From a phage, in sequence record PZ019082.1: a stretch of 40,613 bases of DNA. The stretch is one strand, 5' to 3'. Below, in pieces: positions 23,490 through 38,411 of this stretch. The position numbers and the translations under genes were made by a program. The notes below the pieces were generated by a model that ran no database searches, had not been told where the DNA came from, and saw only the letters and a list, made by a program, of their open reading frames with translations. How positions within the stretch are numbered: the stretch's first letter is position 1; every line of letters begins with the position of its first letter.

Positions 23490-24910
23490 TATCGTTTCCT
23501 TCTCTTCATATAATTAAGTAGTTCGTCCTGTACAGACCTTTTCTCGTCTGTACGCGCGGCGACAACTTCATCAAGAGTATTTCGGGCTATTATTTGATAA
23601 ATGAATACAGACCGTTTGTATCCAGATTGCATCTGCCTTACCGGGCCTATACGCTCGATAACCTGCAGATAATGTTCCAGGTTCCACCCCTGACTAATAA
23701 ATGCCATGTGGTGTCCGCCATGTTGTAGCGACAGCCCGTGGCCCGCAGAAGCTGGGTGTATCAGGAGCATAGGTATCTCACCGCGGTTCCACGCTTCCAT
23801 CTGCTTATTGCCCTTAGCACCTTTTGCAAATGCCTGTGCTTGGGGGAATCGCTTAAGGATGCGCTCCAGTTCGTGCTTGAACTGATAGGCGACCAGTAAC
23901 GGCGCACCCTGTAACTCCTCAACAATTGACTCAAGCGCATCCAGTTTCGTGTCGTGCACTTTCTCCCATTCTTTGGTTGCTTCGCCGTCTTCGCCCGTCA
24001 CATACACAGCACCGGAAGCAATCTGCAAGCACTTAGCCGTTTTAGCGGCGGCGTTGGCGGCCTGCACCTCCCCACTCTCCAGTTCCGCGATTAACTTTTT
24101 CTCCATGTCGTCGTACGCCTGACGCGCTTTCTTCGGCAGGTCGATTTCAACCGGTACAATAATCGGCGCTTCACAACCAAACCACTCGGCGGGGTCGATG
24201 GTCAGGCTGATGTCTTTCATCTTCTGATGAATCTCATTATCGGCACCAGGTCGCGCGTGATATTCACGCGCCATAGCCGACTTACCTTTCTGTACCGAGT
24301 TAAACCAGCGGTCGGTGAATGCTGTGTACGATGAACCGAGTCGCTCACCGGCGTCGATAAACCAGTTCTGACCCCACAAGTCTTTGAGGCCGTTTGGCGA
24401 CGGCGTACCAGTCAGGTTGATGAAACGCCTAACCTTACCGAACGCCACTTTACTAAGCGCCTTTGCTCGCTTGCTTCCGCCAGAACGGCTACGGAATGAT
24501 TTAAGCTTCGTGCTTTCATCAGCAACAATAACGGTAAAAGGCCAGTCGTCTTTGCCGTAGTAGTCAATCAGCCACTCGATAACCTCGTAGTTGGTGCATA
24601 CCACGTTAGCGTCTGACTCCAGAGCCGCGATGCGGCGCTTCTCCGAACCTGTTGCATCGGCGACACTCAGACACGGGAAACCCCACTTAGTTTGTTCTGC
24701 GGGCCACGTACCAGACGCAACGCGCAACGGGGCAAGGATTAACACGCGGTCCTCTTCGGTAAGCTGCCCGTTGCGAAACAGTCGGTTGAGCACCCACATA
24801 GTAGAGGAGGTTTTACCCCCTCCCATGCCGCACCAGATATTACAGCGAGGGTGTTGCAACATGAACGAAGTCATGAGCTTCTGGTATTCACGCCTTTGAA
24901 ACTTACTCAT
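23489..24910 (-). CDS. SNF2/DEAD-like superfamily 2 helicase
   Basis: Walker A GMGGGKTSS, Walker B VIVADEST, motif III LTGTPSPNG. Confidence 0.8.
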   Translation of the reverse strand: MSKFQRREYQKLMTSFMLQHPRCNIWCGMGGGKTSSTMWVLNRLFRNGQLTEEDRVLILAPLRVASGTWPAEQTKWGFPCLSVADATGSEKRRIAALESDANVVCTNYEVIEWLIDYYGKDDWPFTVIVADESTKLKSFRSRSGGSKRAKALSKVAFGKVRRFINLTGTPSPNGLKDLWGQNWFIDAGERLGSSYTAFTDRWFNSVQKGKSAMAREYHARPGADNEIHQKMKDISLTIDPAEWFGCEAPIIVPVEIDLPKKARQAYDDMEKKLIAELESGEVQAANAAAKTAKCLQIASGAVYVTGEDGEATKEWEKVHDTKLDALESIVEELQGAPLLVAYQFKHELERILKRFPQAQAFAKGAKGNKQMEAWNRGEIPMLLIHPASAGHGLSLQHGGHHMAFISQGWNLEHYLQVIERIGPVRQMQSGYKRSVFIYQIIARNTLDEVVAARTDEKRSVQDELLNYMKRRKR

Positions 24911-31131: not shown

Positions 31132-33402
31132 CTATTCCAAATCCTCCTCTGTCACCACCAGCATTTCATTCGGTTCGTATATTGTCTTCGGAATCTTGTT
31201 ATCGTTTATACCCCACGGCAATCGGTATTGCTTAGGGATAGGCCTGTTGTTGTTATCCAGACCTGAGACGATAACCCCGGCCTCGTGCATCTCTTCCAGT
31301 TTCTTTCGAAGGTCGTTATTAGCGTTAATCGGTACGCCGTAACTATCTTCTTTCGCTGCTTTGACGATAGCCGACATGGAAAACCCCCGCTTGTCGTCAC
31401 CCTGCTCCTGCAATTTACCTAACGCGTAAATAACCGTAGCTTCTTTGGTATCCAGTTTCTCGAACTGACCTACCTTTTCTTTAACAGCCGCTTTACCTTC
31501 CTTTGTCAGCCCTTCTTCCCGCTCTTTCTCCTCGTCGGTCTTGAATGGTTCGAAACCCCACGGCATCAGCACAAGCGCCTTGTGTGGTTCAGGCAGGTCG
31601 AGGTTTACGATTGTGCCGTATTCCTCCGTGCTTCCGAGGAACTCAACCGCGCGGTACTCTTTCGGTGGTGGCGCTTCACGGAACTGTACCGACTCCAGTA
31701 CCATGCCAACCGTCTTCTGTTGAGGCCCGTGCTTAAATTTCGAGTGGTATACATTTATTTGACGTTCGGTCGCGCGTTCGATTGTTAGTTCCACGTCGAC
31801 ACCAGCGTACAGCGCCCCACTGCCACGGGCTTTCTTTCCACCTTTCGGCGTATGGTGGACAACGCCTACCGCGGCTTTAGTTGCGTCGCGTACTTCTTTC
31901 AGGATGGCGATAACTTTACCCATGCCGATTGTCGTTGATGAACTGTTCTCGTCGAACTTATCAATCGTCAGGGCCAGCGTCTGGTTGAGGGTGTCGAACG
32001 CAACCATACCAATAGGCTCGTCGCCCGCAGTTTCGCGCATTAACTTAATCAGGCTTTTCAGTTTCCCGACTTCGCCCATGTCGATAACATGTACATAATC
32101 TTTACCTTCCTCGCCATATTTAGCCGCTAGTGCGTCGATACGTGTGCGCGTAGCTGCGCCACCTTCACCGTCAATATAGAAATGGTGGCAACGCTGGGTA
32201 TCTGCCCCGGCAAATCTGTATCCGGCGGCGCTAAGGTACATCATCCCCAGCGTATAAAACGATTTGTACGTTCCAGACTCCCCGACGATATCCCAGATGC
32301 AGTCTGTCGGCATGTATCCTTCTACGACGAAATCAGCCTTTACCGGTTCCGGTAACTCGTCCTCCTCTGAGTCCTCGTCGTCTTCCAGGTCGTCCAGACT
32401 GCATGAAACTGACTCACGCGCACCCCAGCCGATGGCCTCGGCGACTTCACTGAATGGAAGACCAGTCGCATCACACGCATACTTCCACACCTCTTTCGGT
32501 GACATGCCCTCGGTTGCCGTGATGTCTGTGTCGTGAATCATGGTTACGTTAGGTGCTTCGTACCCCTCGCGCGGGAAGCACAGCAGGAAGTCGTCCGGGC
32601 GCGGGGTCGGGTCGCTGTAGTTTTCTGCGTGTTCCGGTGTGGCGGGCATCTTAAGTCCACGCGGCGTCATGATGCCGCCGTATTCGAACGCCAGTGCCTC
32701 GAACGCATCAGTAAATGCCGTGCGCAGTTCTTCTGGTATCTGGTAATCCGATGCGCTGCTCACCTCGTAATCCGGGATGCCTTCCAGTAACTCGTCCGGG
32801 TCAATCAGGTCGTTACGGCGCGACCAGATAACGGTAGAGCCGACAGGCGGCAGGTACATCGGCTGCGACAGAGTGAACCCGCTGTGGTCCGCACCCATGC
32901 CTTTGAAGAAGTGCTCCAGCAATCCATGACGAACACGGATGATGCCACCACCTTCGACCGGGCGGCCCAGCGGCATGACGACGCGAAAGCGCGGTGACTC
33001 ATCGGTATGTGATGCCGTGGTGTAGAGGCACATAGCCAGGCGGCTACGCTTAACCAATCGCACCGCCTCCTGATACTCGTCAGGTGTTGCACTGTCGAAG
33101 TCCAGATACGCCAGCGACGATTTGTTTACAGACGCATCGCAGCGATAGAAGAAGCCTTTACGCGCCTGCTTAAAGTCCCCAGTTTCCGGGTCTTTTACGG
33201 TGCTGTGCGTTGAGTCGCACGCGGCGGTGATATACCCCGGCGCGGTCTTCGGGTTAATTCCGTCGCGAACAGCATCGAGCGGCTGGATTAACTCTTTCAG
33301 GTCGTCCAGTGTTGCCGTGTGTGTGGTTCTGACGTTTATATCCTTTTTCTCCGCCCGCGCGTTGCGACGAGACCACGAGTAGGATAAAATTACATCGGAC
33401 AT
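31132..33402 (-). CDS. putative replicative primase/helicase-like protein (756 aa)
   Basis: Central P-loop-like GESGTYKS and RecA-type layout; size and position in replication module; RBS GAAGGAAA; family assignment uncertain. Confidence 0.5.
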   Translation of the reverse strand: MSDVILSYSWSRRNARAEKKDINVRTTHTATLDDLKELIQPLDAVRDGINPKTAPGYITAACDSTHSTVKDPETGDFKQARKGFFYRCDASVNKSSLAYLDFDSATPDEYQEAVRLVKRSRLAMCLYTTASHTDESPRFRVVMPLGRPVEGGGIIRVRHGLLEHFFKGMGADHSGFTLSQPMYLPPVGSTVIWSRRNDLIDPDELLEGIPDYEVSSASDYQIPEELRTAFTDAFEALAFEYGGIMTPRGLKMPATPEHAENYSDPTPRPDDFLLCFPREGYEAPNVTMIHDTDITATEGMSPKEVWKYACDATGLPFSEVAEAIGWGARESVSCSLDDLEDDEDSEEDELPEPVKADFVVEGYMPTDCIWDIVGESGTYKSFYTLGMMYLSAAGYRFAGADTQRCHHFYIDGEGGAATRTRIDALAAKYGEEGKDYVHVIDMGEVGKLKSLIKLMRETAGDEPIGMVAFDTLNQTLALTIDKFDENSSSTTIGMGKVIAILKEVRDATKAAVGVVHHTPKGGKKARGSGALYAGVDVELTIERATERQINVYHSKFKHGPQQKTVGMVLESVQFREAPPPKEYRAVEFLGSTEEYGTIVNLDLPEPHKALVLMPWGFEPFKTDEEKEREEGLTKEGKAAVKEKVGQFEKLDTKEATVIYALGKLQEQGDDKRGFSMSAIVKAAKEDSYGVPINANNDLRKKLEEMHEAGVIVSGLDNNNRPIPKQYRLPWGINDNKIPKTIYEPNEMLVVTEEDLE

Positions 33403-33460
33403 GTTGTATTTCCTTCAGCAAGTAATTTGGCCTCGGCGTTCACCGCGTCGGGGCTTTCTT

Positions 33461-33736
33461 TTATTCCAGGTCGCGGGAGATATTACCCTCGGGGACCAAC
33501 ACTTTTCCAATACTTCTCGCTTTCCCGTTAAGCGGCGTTGCTCTTGTTGCCCGATAAAACTTTCCTTTATTAAGAACCTCTCCGTGTTGCTCAAGAACAC
33601 TTAAAGCATGTTTAATCGGATTTACACCGTAATTATCTAACCGGTATCTACGAAGCCCGTCTAGTGTAAAAGCGCCGTTCGCCTCGGTCAGTCTGCGTGC
33701 GCACATTAATACGTGTTTCTGGAATTTAGTTAGCAT
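33461..33736 (-). CDS. hypothetical protein (91 aa)
   Basis: RBS AAGGAG 10 nt upstream; overlaps end of upstream regulator gene. Confidence 0.45.
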   Translation of the reverse strand: MLTKFQKHVLMCARRLTEANGAFTLDGLRRYRLDNYGVNPIKHALSVLEQHGEVLNKGKFYRATRATPLNGKARSIGKVLVPEGNISRDLE

Positions 33737-34300: not shown

Positions 34301-34329
34301 TTGCACACCCCAACATAATAGGATACTAT
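34301..34329 (+). promoter_or_regulatory. early promoter TTGCAC-N17-TACTAT
   Basis: Followed by TCACTTATCGG and leader AACGAGACAGAGGAG; 40-bp element repeated on minus strand at 12851-12890. Confidence 0.6.
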
Positions 34330-34363
34330 TCACTTATCGGAACGAGACAGAGGAGTGAGGGTT

Positions 34364-34549
34364 ATGTTTAAGAAGGGTCAGTTGGTGAGAATTTTGGAGA
34401 CAGGGGGGTTAGCGGTTATTTCATTCGCACACCACAAAGAATGTAGTGTTTATTTTGCAAAATCTTTAACGGGGTCCTATCTCACCGTGTTATACGCACA
34501 AGATATGAAACTCATCGGCAACAATTTTAAATTCAAAGGGGCGAAGTGA
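34364..34549 (+). CDS. hypothetical early protein (61 aa)
   Basis: ATG with RBS AGGAG 8 nt upstream (track ORF starts at GTG 34355). Confidence 0.5.
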   Translation: MFKKGQLVRILETGGLAVISFAHHKECSVYFAKSLTGSYLTVLYAQDMKLIGNNFKFKGAK

Positions 34550-35300: not shown

Positions 35301-35329
35301 CTTGCACACTAAGATAGAATAGGCTACTA
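35301..35329 (+). promoter_or_regulatory. early promoter TTGCAC-N17-TACTAT
   Basis: Same architecture as 34301-34329; followed by TCATTTACAC and leader AAACGAGAGGAGAGA. Confidence 0.6.
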
Positions 35330-35361
35330 TTCATTTACACAAACGAGAGGAGAGACAGAAG

Positions 35362-35481
35362 ATGGGTTGGTACGGTAGCTGGACATTAGGCGAACTGGTA
35401 GACGCTTACGAAATAATGGGTAGCACTTCGGTGTGCGACGGCGACACTAAAGCGATAACAATGGGGGTTGATGATGAGTAA
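35362..35481 (+). CDS. small early peptide (39 aa)
   Basis: Not in ORF track; ATG directly after conserved leader AAACGAGAGGAGAGACAGAAG. Confidence 0.35.
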   Translation: MGWYGSWTLGELVDAYEIMGSTSVCDGDTKAITMGVDDE

Positions 35482-37054: not shown

Positions 37055-37319
37055 GCTATTCTGGTTTGTCGTAATGCTTTCAATGGGCGCTTCGTCCCTG
37101 TTCAACGTGTATAATGAGCGTGTGGACGACGGGCTGTTCGGGCGTGTTCTCTATATCCTGACCGCTATTGTCTGCGCCGCCGGGTGTATCCACCTGTTAC
37201 AGGGCGGCATGTCGCCTACGTTGCCCGAGACATTAATCACATTAGTTGCGCTGCGTCAGATTCGTCAGGCGTGGCTGTCGTACGGAGGACATAAGCGTGT
37301 CTCGAAACATTTCAGATAA
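37047..37319 (+). CDS. second small membrane protein (possible antiholin or holin partner)
   Basis: ATG with RBS GGAGGA overlapping holin end; two hydrophobic segments. Confidence 0.4.
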   Translation: MTELFWFVVMLSMGASSLFNVYNERVDDGLFGRVLYILTAIVCAAGCIHLLQGGMSPTLPETLITLVALRQIRQAWLSYGGHKRVSKHFR

Positions 37320-37782
37320 TGGATTGCATTTTACCTCTGCATTTGAGGGATTCCGCGGAACTGCGTATCGTGCTACCCCAAACGAGAAGTACCTTACTAT
37401 TGGGTACGGACATTACGGGCCGGACGTAACCCCGGGTAAGACCATCACACCGGGGCAGGGCTTGCTGTTACTGAATCGCGATATGGCTAAGGCTGTAGCT
37501 GCGGTTGACGCGGCAGCACACCATTCGCTGACACAGGCACAGTTTGATGCAGTGTGCGACCTGGTCTATAACGCGGGTGCTGGTGTGATTGCAGCTACTA
37601 CAGGCACGGGTAAGGCGCTGCGTTCTGGTGATATTGCAACGCTGCGGGCTAAGCTGGCGCTGTTTATCAACCAGAACGGCAAACCGTTACTCGGCCTGCG
37701 TCGCCGTACAGCCGGACGCCTTGCACTGTTCGACGGTAAACCGTGGCAGGAGGCTGAGGCTATTGGGAGGGCTGTTAAATGA
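37297..37782 (+). CDS. endolysin, glycoside hydrolase family 24 (T4-type lysozyme)
   Basis: Motif FEGFRGTAYRATPNEKYLTIGYGHYG; GTG start with RBS GGAGGA (track ORF starts at 37246). Confidence 0.75.
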   Translation: MSRNISDNGLHFTSAFEGFRGTAYRATPNEKYLTIGYGHYGPDVTPGKTITPGQGLLLLNRDMAKAVAAVDAAAHHSLTQAQFDAVCDLVYNAGAGVIAATTGTGKALRSGDIATLRAKLALFINQNGKPLLGLRRRTAGRLALFDGKPWQEAEAIGRAVK

Positions 37783-37816
37783 TGGAAGAGAACTGGGACG
37801 TATAGTACAATTGCAG

Positions 37817-37902
37817 CGCCGCTTGTGCTTGCGAAGGATTGAAGTGATGATGGACGAATACGAAGGCGTTTAGTAAACTTACATCACGCCGCTTGTGCTT
37901 GC
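37817..37902. repeat. 16-bp direct repeat CGCCGCTTGTGCTTGC (37817-37832 and 37887-37902)
   Basis: Exact repeat in noncoding region downstream of endolysin. Confidence 0.6.
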
Positions 37903-37906
37903 ACCA

Positions 37907-37934
37907 CCCCGAAACCCGGACCCCGAAACCCGGA
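37907..37934. repeat. tandem duplication of 14-bp unit CCCCGAAACCCGGA
   Basis: Two exact adjacent copies; second copy forms the 5-prime arm of the terminator hairpin. Confidence 0.65.
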
Positions 37935-37956
37935 CCGCGAATCCGGGTTTTATTTT
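37928..37956 (+). terminator. rho-independent terminator
   Basis: ACCCGGA-CCGCGAA-TCCGGGT hairpin followed by TTTTATTTT. Confidence 0.7.
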
Positions 37957-38085
37957 GCCCGCAGTTTGATAGACTAACGGCAACAGAAGATTAAACAACA
38001 TTGAGGGCACTCCGGGTATCATCACCCTCATGGACCTGTAACAAGGTCTGGCCAAAGTGCGGTAACGCGTGCCGGAGAATCTCTG

Positions 38086-38114
38086 TTGACACCTAAGACT
38101 AATCCGACGATACT
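38086..38114 (+). promoter_or_regulatory. putative promoter TTGACA-N17-GATACT
   Basis: Consensus -35 with moderate -10; about 45 nt upstream of terminator 38156-38186. Confidence 0.3.
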
Positions 38115-38155
38115 TAAATCACCTCCTGTTCCATCCCTCTACTCTCCAGTTTTAT

Positions 38156-38186
38156 CCCGGCCCTGACCCAGCCGGGATTTTTTTTA
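38156..38186 (+). terminator. rho-independent terminator
   Basis: CCCGGC-CCTGACCCA-GCCGGG hairpin followed by ATTTTTTTT. Confidence 0.7.
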
Positions 38187-38207
38187 TTTATTTTCTGCAA
38201 TGACTAG

Positions 38208-38236
38208 TTGACTATTACCTTCGACCCTATTATATT
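38208..38236 (+). promoter_or_regulatory. promoter TTGACT-N17-TATATT
   Basis: Followed by leader AACGAGAACGGAGTAGAGAGA and ATG 38271. Confidence 0.55.
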
Positions 38237-38270
38237 TACTCCATCGACAACGAGAACGGAGTAGAGAGAA

Positions 38271-38411
38271 ATGAGAATTTACAAGGTTGAGCTTCACGGT
38301 AAAGTACTTGGTCATTATAACTTTGGCGAGTACATCTCCGCCGATTGCGCACGTGACATCCTGATTAGCGAAGGTTTTAGTCAATACATCAAAGTCACGG
38401 AGATTAAATAA
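38271..38411 (+). CDS. small hypothetical protein (46 aa)
   Basis: Not in ORF track; RBS GGAGTAGAGAGA; first gene after promoter. Confidence 0.4.
   Translation: MRIYKVELHGKVLGHYNFGEYISADCARDILISEGFSQYIKVTEIK

Follow-up and report, generated by a model that had tools for sequence, protein, structure and literature searches.

The 40,613-nucleotide phage DNA analyzed here (sequence record PZ019082.1, referred to below in its full length as the window) contains a noncoding interval between its endolysin gene and the next gene, within which positions 38086-38185 are probably a gene for a small noncoding RNA (sRNA) that is conserved across the subfamily Guernseyvirinae and has the anatomy of a base-pairing, Hfq-type sRNA. 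According to megablast, the window derives from a Kagunavirus-like (Guernseyvirinae) Escherichia coli siphophage of the K1H/K1G type, with about 90% identity to its relatives over the structural genes. Annotated relatives carry a lysis cassette of two holins and an endolysin upstream of the studied region, which is on the + strand, and the locus is situated between the lysis genes and the packaging genes. A preliminary description of this DNA had reported a 490-bp noncoding region without an open reading frame (ORF) of meaningful length. This was borne out: between the endolysin stop codon (TGA, 37780-37782) and the ATG of the next gene at 38271 only trivial ORFs were found, with at most 33 amino acids on the + strand and a single 58-amino-acid ORF on the − strand that starts with TTG and crosses a terminator. 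The RNA has so far been either left unannotated or misannotated as a hypothetical protein.

The part of the interval that is shared with relatives is a cassette containing a promoter (P1), a terminator (T2), and a second promoter with its leader (P2), as defined by the alignment of 51 distinct versions (Table 1). In BLAST searches its left edge was abrupt at 38085/38086 and coincided with the −35 hexamer of P1: about 120 Kagunavirus records matched the cassette at 93-98%, whereas the 125 bp directly upstream were matched by only 4 of 121 records. With the cassette of Salmonella phage Jersey as query, 450 phage records were obtained, among which 334 were Salmonella and 99 Escherichia records; in 425 cases, the match covered at least 80% of the query length. 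The cassette is found in both Kagunavirus and Jerseyvirus. On its left, the 51 versions were flanked by six unrelated kinds of sequence, namely an endolysin gene with the TGA inside the −35 hexamer (20 versions), a Jersey-type endolysin gene with a TAG just before it (7), a terminator termed T1 (10), a 120-bp element termed E (7, including the window), and one or the other of two distinct small ORFs (4 and 3). Variation is also seen on the right, in the first gene after the cassette. A cassette that stays intact between mosaic flanks bears the signature of a functional module. In relatives, the endolysin gene and the two small ORFs, which are unrelated to each other, mostly all end in ...AAGGTTGA, with the TGA stop inside the −35 hexamer of P1 (38086-38089 in the window), a pattern that points to AAGGTTGACA as a favored site for recombination to join sequences.

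No match to the cassette was found in 5,426 complete E. coli genomes, and among species-representative genomes no enterobacterial match was obtained, only chance hits in unrelated taxa and two contaminant contigs. As judged from these comparisons, the cassette is not derived from the host. The assembly of Taishania pollutisoli (Bacteroidota) carries a Jerseyvirus-type cassette on a tiny contig (L209), and a further contig (L224) matched the same search pattern; both are 836-838 bp long, and the cassette contig likely represents phage contamination of the assembly.

The distribution of the RNA was further assessed in a survey of loci that was anchored on the endolysin protein and was therefore without bias toward the RNA. 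A covariance model built from 29 versions (R1) gave one hit each, located 30-300 nt past the endolysin stop, in all 29 close loci with enough downstream DNA. The longest gap was that of the window, with 333 nt between the endolysin stop (37782) and the start of the R1 hit at 38115. Per complete genome a single strong match to R1 was obtained, with a score of 92 bits in the window; a second candidate copy at 33393-33461 (21.7 bits) falls within an opposite-strand gene and was not counted.

P1 matches the sigma-70 consensus at 10 of 12 positions, and its predicted start, A38121, is the +1 at the usual 7-nt distance from the −10 hexamer. Promoter variation was counted on the 42 K-type (Kagunavirus-type) versions. 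None of the 12 hexamer positions of P1 varied, versus 10 of the 17 spacer positions (Fisher p=0.0012), and all six positions of the discriminator were invariant. Three unrelated spacer types occur, each with conserved hexamers and a spacing of exactly 17 nt; the types other than that of the window are found in TPH05A and L049 (TTGACR-17-CATACT) and in Salmonella phage Jersey and its relatives (TTGACR-17-GATACT). P2 follows T2 in every relative with invariant hexamers; its K-type versions varied at 0 of 12 hexamer positions versus 12 of 17 spacer positions (Fisher p=0.00012), and the leader consensus sequences of the K and J types are identical in 32 of 34 alignment columns. From this pattern of variation, P1 and P2 are predicted to be real promoters, and the footprint of P1 points to a dedicated promoter as expected of an Hfq-type sRNA. 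A consensus scan of the window alone revealed four promoter-like sites versus 3.7 ± 2.2 in shuffled sequences, which is chance level, and the case for function therefore rests on the relatives and not on the window alone.

An RNA initiated at P1 and ending in the U tract of T2 would have a length of about 65 nt. Its 5′ part (38121-38153, 33 nt) is C/U-rich, poor in G, and unpaired in both the minimum-free-energy and the centroid fold. The GC skew amounts to −0.455 at 38100-38199, in a genome region of positive skew. The 5′ end reads ACCUCCU and is anti-Shine-Dalgarno-like; we take it to resemble the 3′ end of 16S rRNA. It is followed by a conserved core, CAUCCCUCU (38132-38140), that is near-invariant in Kagunavirus and Jerseyvirus. 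The 3′ part consists of UUUUA, the T2 hairpin (38154-38178), and the U tract. With an 8-bp GC-rich stem followed by U8 (−13.8 kcal/mol, z −2.7), T2 is the sole structure in the predicted RNA; it was missed by a terminator scan because the latter allows loops of 3-8 nt and the T2 loop comprises 9 nt. Across genera, three pairs of the T2 stem showed changes on both sides, and one sequence contained a G-U pair. In the alignment, 91% of the stem cells were paired, versus 21-53% when the 3′ partner was slid by 1-3 columns. The T run is 7-13 long across all versions. T2 is predicted to end the P1 RNA and, in most relatives, the lysis operon too. The annotations of PVP-SE2 and Schulenburg mark it as a terminator.

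Enterobacterial Hfq-binding sRNAs share a layout in which a U-rich stretch precedes a GC-rich hairpin that is followed by a U tail. The predicted RNA has all of these elements in this order, and it also has a conserved single-stranded seed: a UU(C)CAYSC-type core was present in 34 of 36 distinct versions of the module, distant genera included. The preliminary description had named the 490-bp interval a candidate small RNA locus with two promoters at 38086-38114 and 38208-38236, both of which are present as described, and it had estimated a transcript of 60-70 nt, which agrees with the 65 nt predicted here from 38121 to about 38185. The conservation and covariation analysis that it proposed gave a conserved cassette and a covarying T2 stem. 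What stands of the small RNA locus is thus the unit 38086-38186, with its conservation in about 450 genomes, promoter footprint, and covariation; the repeats that had been counted toward it are not part of it.

Table 1. Features of the window between the endolysin gene and the next gene
Feature	Position	Strand	Details and basis
Endolysin gene	37246..37782	+	ORF list; endolysin or lysozyme in the annotation of relatives
Diverged tandem duplication, ~68-bp unit	37779..37906 (37779-37846, 37847-37906)	+	repeat families D1 (70% identity) and D3
14-bp tandem unit ACCCCGAAACCCGG	37906..37933 (37906-37919, 37920-37933)	+	Tandem Repeats Finder: period 14, 2.6 copies, score 65
T1, predicted intrinsic terminator	37925..37956	+	fold: 10-bp stem 37925-37934/37942-37951, 7-nt loop, AUUUU to 37956
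E element, 120 bp	37965..38084	+	in a minority of relatives; homologous to an internal part of the L281 noncoding transcript
Conserved cassette	38086-38270	+	P1, ~35 nt C/U-rich, T2 with U8, P2, 28-nt leader; alignment of 51 versions
P1, predicted sigma-70 promoter	38086..38114	+	−35 TTGACA 38086-38091, 17-nt spacer, −10 GATACT 38109-38114
Predicted RNA, ~65 nt	38121..38185	+	P1 start to T2 U tract (3′ end 38179-38185); fold, alignment, R1
T2, predicted intrinsic terminator	38154..38185	+	ATCCCGGC 38154-38161, 9-nt loop, GCCGGGAT 38171-38178, T run 38178-38185
P2, predicted promoter and leader	38208..38270	+	TTGACT-17-TATATT 38208-38236; 28-nt leader with predicted start A38243, AACGAGA 38249-38255, Shine-Dalgarno GGAG 38258-38261; ATG 38271

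The comparison with known systems was made with RybB, MicC, and CyaR, the latter with an anti-Shine-Dalgarno-like CACCUCCUUA loop, as representatives of Hfq-dependent sRNAs. In common with these, the phage RNA is about 65 nt long, has its own predicted sigma-70 promoter and an unstructured seed at the 5′ end, and ends in a GC-rich hairpin that directly follows a U-rich stretch and is itself followed by 7-8 U; its pyrimidine-rich seed is complementary to Shine-Dalgarno-type sequences. In contrast to them it is encoded by a virulent phage and is unrelated in sequence (RyhB, 15 bits versus 55). An overlap of the endolysin stop codon with the −35 hexamer of P1, as seen in most relatives, is reminiscent of the sRNAs of the 3′-untranslated-region (3′-UTR) type such as DapZ and MicL, whose own promoters lie in the upstream gene; as with these, the phage sRNA would share T2 with the lysis mRNA, and the long forms of distant relatives described below have AA/AUU before the 3′ module, which may be an RNase-E-like site. 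In the window, 300 bp and T1 lie between the endolysin gene and P1, and its RNA would thus, unlike DapZ and MicL, come from a free-standing gene. DicF, AgvB/AsxR, and lambda OOP are likewise short RNAs with intrinsic terminators that are encoded by mobile elements, and they act by base pairing; these, however, stem from temperate phages or prophages and share no sequence similarity with the phage RNA (AgvB, 14 bits versus 56).

No Rfam family matched the whole window at gathering thresholds, and permissive scans of the region and of phage K1ind3 yielded only sub-threshold hits that were dominated by the terminator. The best of these was to RF02278 (Betaproteobacteria toxic small RNA; 24.7-25 bits, E ~0.006-0.011 in a very small search space). 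The phage RNA resembles this family in being short and in having C/U-rich, anti-Shine-Dalgarno-like motifs and a terminator, but the score is half of the 50-bit gathering threshold, the match covers mainly the terminator, and the family belongs to another host clade; the phage RNA is not a member of it. Literature searches revealed no small RNA described for Kagunavirus or Jerseyvirus, and a search for Jerseyvirus RNA-seq gave nothing relevant. Noncoding RNA is unmentioned in the BASEL paper, which covers Bas70-76 (PMC11990801).

More distant, Guernseyvirinae-like phages, with endolysins that are 70-82% identical, and likewise Salmonella phage LL_sp9 differ in sequence at this locus but retain its design. 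Their endolysin stop is directly followed by a TATAnT promoter, in many cases with an extended TGn; then come 50-400 nt free of ORFs, a T2-like terminator, and a P2-like promoter. The 3′ module of these loci reads AAAUUCCAYCCAGCCAGCYUUUG followed by a hairpin and U8-10. Such long forms are located at about 1980-2400 each in loci L271, L273, L275, L277-L284, and L286, and at 350-450 in L179. Permissive Rfam scans of ten distant loci gave only sub-threshold hits, mostly to the terminator. Taken at the level of sequence comparison, the locus appears as a noncoding-RNA slot found throughout the subfamily, in which the 3′ module is constant and the 5′ parts are exchangeable.

The E element of the window is best seen as a fragment of such a longer RNA, because the long form of L281 contains a clear E homologue, situated inside the noncoding transcript, about 210 nt long, that this distant relative has at the corresponding locus; in the window, where T1 lies upstream of it, E is possibly a remnant. 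It can form three hairpins (38003-07/38025-29, 38032-36/38045-49, and 38057-61/GUAA/38066-70, the third with a GNRA loop), the first of which showed compensatory changes in L264 and L281 in the alignment. As a whole, E folded no better than shuffled sequences (z −0.6). A promoter candidate at its start (TTGATA-17-GATTAA) was rejected, since its −10 hexamer lacks the final T and it is not conserved in L050 or L264. An extended version of the sRNA hypothesis, to which we give only limited credence, is that of a dedicated modular RNA slot: the 3′ module would act as a high-copy sRNA of the anti-Shine-Dalgarno type, serving host translation shutdown or the timing of the phage's own operons via their AACGAGA leaders, and the exchangeable 5′ domains (50-400 nt; the 120-bp E in the window) would be additional functional RNAs, for example in counter-defence.

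In the simpler form that we favor, host RNA polymerase would start at P1 (A38121), stop at T2, and release the RNA of about 65 nt. Its C/U-rich seed would base-pair, possibly in an Hfq-dependent manner, with purine-rich ribosome-binding regions and thereby change translation or stability; the targets would be host mRNAs or operon leaders of the phage itself. Putative targets within the phage were searched for by predicted pairing. The seed of phage Jersey paired at the ribosome-binding regions of gp57 and gp54, the first genes of two rightward Jersey operons, better than shuffled seeds did (p=0.009 and 0.0125) and better than the K-type seed did, and the Jersey sRNA locus ranked 4th and 7th genome-wide as a partner of these two leaders. 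In the window, the P2 leader contains an 11-nt, 91% complement to the seed (I2), which was only 13th of 163 start sites. A strong complement observed by sliding RNAduplex over both strands lies in the coding sequence of the helicase (24060-24089, − strand; −38 kcal/mol, with an 11-nt exact core, AACTGGAGAGT). It was rejected as a target, as it is inside the gene and not in a ribosome-binding region, and it is probably due to chance; the estimated chance expectation for an 11-mer match is about 0.4.

Several observations weigh against a base-pairing sRNA. The pairing of the window seed with the phage's own purine-rich leaders did not exceed that of dinucleotide-shuffled sequences (p=0.63 with the window variant and p=0.15 with the K consensus), and the window sRNA locus ranked only 85th-254th genome-wide as a partner of these leaders; this null result is partly explained by the fact that any C/U-rich sequence pairs well with purine-rich leaders. 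The seed is not strictly conserved: it contains a G/A polymorphism, and the distant genera share only UUCCAYCC. T2 would also serve as the lysis terminator and its T tract may be an upstream element of P2, so that part of the conservation needs no RNA function. Finally, the infection transcriptome of K1B4, the sole study of this kind retrieved for Kagunavirus, counts annotated genes only and leaves noncoding RNA unmentioned (PMC12645636).

Two alternative readings of the unit do without a functional sRNA. It might be a regulated terminator or antitermination leader. P1 would then be a constitutive promoter whose transcripts end at T2 by default; a phage factor that targets the P1 DNA or the conserved C-rich RNA before the hairpin would enable polymerase to continue into the genes for packaging and structure, and the short RNA would be a by-product. 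The unit indeed lies directly upstream of the operon of small genes, terminase, and structural genes, the conserved C-rich element adjoins the 5′ arm of T2 in all genera, and the three unrelated P1 spacers could mirror different specificities of a DNA-binding factor. There is also a resemblance to the PR′-6S RNA-tR′ module of lambda, where a promoter of constitutive appearance has a strong intrinsic terminator no more than about 70 nt downstream, next to lysis and packaging genes; unlike there, a second conserved promoter follows the terminator and the unit lies downstream, not upstream, of the lysis genes. A boxA-like UGCUCU / GCUCCUUUA was noted in the RNA by eye in the alignment, but the G of its core is an A in the window and in several lineages. 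Since the near-consensus P2 follows T2 in every relative, the downstream operon needs no read-through, and no Q or antiterminator domain was found in the 10 small + strand ORFs scanned with Pfam and PHROGs, nor in the HHpred-based annotation of fTaEco03. Antitermination is therefore considered unlikely. A slightly lower probability is assigned to a plain operon boundary, in which T2 would be the lysis terminator, the T tract an upstream element of P2, the C/U-rich stretch a 3′-UTR, and P1 weak or irrelevant. In 27 of the 51 versions, the endolysin stop codon falls within the −35 hexamer of P1 or shortly ahead of it, so that lysis transcripts would end at T2, earlier annotators marked only the terminator and P2 at this locus, and the consensus scans of the window were at chance level. 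Such a boundary leaves unexplained why the P1 hexamers are invariant and exactly 17 nt apart across three unrelated spacers, why P1 is kept in the window and in 10 of 51 versions, where the lysis operon would have ended at T1 before, and why distant genera have a post-endolysin promoter, 50-400 noncoding nt before T2, and the conserved 3′ module.

The remaining alternatives, a coding gene, an origin, a packaging site, or an attenuator, are effectively excluded. A small protein encoded across the RNA stretch, the least probable of all readings, is suggested by a 39-amino-acid hypothetical coding sequence annotated in two records (Ivi ECPH5_11 and AG11_59A) and by one frame that is free of stop codons in 30 of 32 versions. 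However, this frame has no ATG, GTG, TTG, or Shine-Dalgarno sequence and is open because the composition is C/U-rich; the annotated ORF begins at the TTG of the −35 hexamer and crosses the T2 hairpin, in the window a TGA follows after 26 codons, and the frames are shifted between close relatives by the T run of 7-13 and by 2-nt indels. Scarcely more probable is that the clustering of repeats and hairpins in this noncoding region marks a replication origin, a packaging site, or a repeat-built attenuator, two of which, the origin and attenuator-like alternative hairpins, had been raised in the preliminary description. Neither idea could be upheld: the repeats are absent from all relatives examined, the extremes of the cumulative GC skew are located at ~22-23 kb and 33-34 kb, with no turn at 37783-38270, and the second 5′ arm that an alternative hairpin would require is confined to the window, with T1 folding through the proximal arm. 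With regard to packaging, the pac site of phage P22 lies inside its small-terminase gene; the small terminase subunit of a relative is annotated as P22 gp3-like, and the corresponding gene of the window is located about 2 kb downstream.

The interval to the left of the cassette is of a different nature. The 16-bp direct repeat CGCCGCTTGTGCTTGC was confirmed as exact copies at 37817-37832 and 37887-37902, and it is real because an exact 16-mer repeat is expected by chance in 488 bp at an estimated ~3e-5. It represents the least diverged part of a tandem duplication with a unit of about 68 bp, each copy of which opens with an 8-codon mini-ORF (ATGATGGA...TAG). These mini-ORFs encode MMEENWDV (37779-37805), which overlaps the endolysin stop (ATGA), and MMDEYEGV (37847-37873). 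In some relatives, the same site is occupied by a 30-amino-acid hydrophobic ORF (Bas75_0072, TPH05A_00008) or by a 24-amino-acid ORF (Ivi type), and the post-endolysin spacer is a hot spot for tiny genes. In a multiple alignment, copy 1 of the duplication resembled the SCS44/Ivi allele and copy 2 the K1ind3/JSSK01 allele, and relatives had one copy each. The duplication is most likely a window-specific recombination scar joining two alleles of the post-endolysin spacer, and the simplest reading of its origin would be unequal recombination between two phages with different alleles.

The 14-bp tandem repeat, previously placed at 37907-37934, is the same repeat as that in Table 1 in another register. 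Its extra copy duplicates the 5′ arm of T1, and CGAAACCCGGA occurs only once in T1-bearing relatives. No relative examined carried the 16-bp repeat or the 14-bp unit twice, and by this comparison the repeats appear to be recent accidents and not conserved functional elements. Both terminators described earlier were located within 1-2 nt; T1, however, is optional, as only 10 of the 51 cassette versions, about a fifth, have it immediately before P1. In the window phage, T1 is predicted to end the lysis operon, and its minimum-free-energy fold pairs the proximal arm. The region as a whole folded no better than shuffled sequences (z −0.37). Relatives of the K1G/K1ind type have a 52-nt insert between the endolysin gene and T1 (phage K1ind3, L003, 1580-1750), which the window lacks. 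The insert folds into a long hairpin (TAAGCCCC...GGGGCTTA), and the fold of this region had a z of −2.3. Seen across relatives, the rest of the 490-bp interval thus presents itself as a mosaic insertion hot spot with the 68-bp duplication, the optional T1 with its duplicated arm, and the 120-bp fragment. With regard to the endolysin gene itself, 37246 is the first TTG of the open frame, and the true start is probably further downstream.

The leader of P2 belongs to a layout that recurs in the window. Four sigma-70-type promoters share one arrangement, in which the −10 hexamer is followed after about 11 nt by AACGAGA and then by a purine-rich Shine-Dalgarno region and ATG (+ strand, 34301-34366, 35302-35364, and 38208-38273; − strand, ~30793). 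For Kagunavirus, seven "phage-RNA-polymerase promoters" with the motif tgAATAGTa-ccTATTat-T have been described (PMC9825357), and this motif probably corresponds to the AACGAGA-leader promoter class of the window. No RNA polymerase gene was present in the annotations of relatives seen here.

To our knowledge, few sRNAs have been characterized in strictly lytic enterobacterial phages. If real, the RNA described here would be among the most conserved noncoding elements of the whole subfamily, detectable by blastn in about 450 genomes, many of which belong to candidates for phage therapy or food biocontrol. For annotators, this would mean that no coding sequence should be called at the locus, and for the engineering of Kagunavirus chassis (phage CM001, Bas70-76) that the spacer between the endolysin gene and P2 is not free space. 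With a single −10 hexamer and an RNA of 65 nt, it would offer a small and easily mutated handle on the post-transcriptional regulation of the phage or its host.

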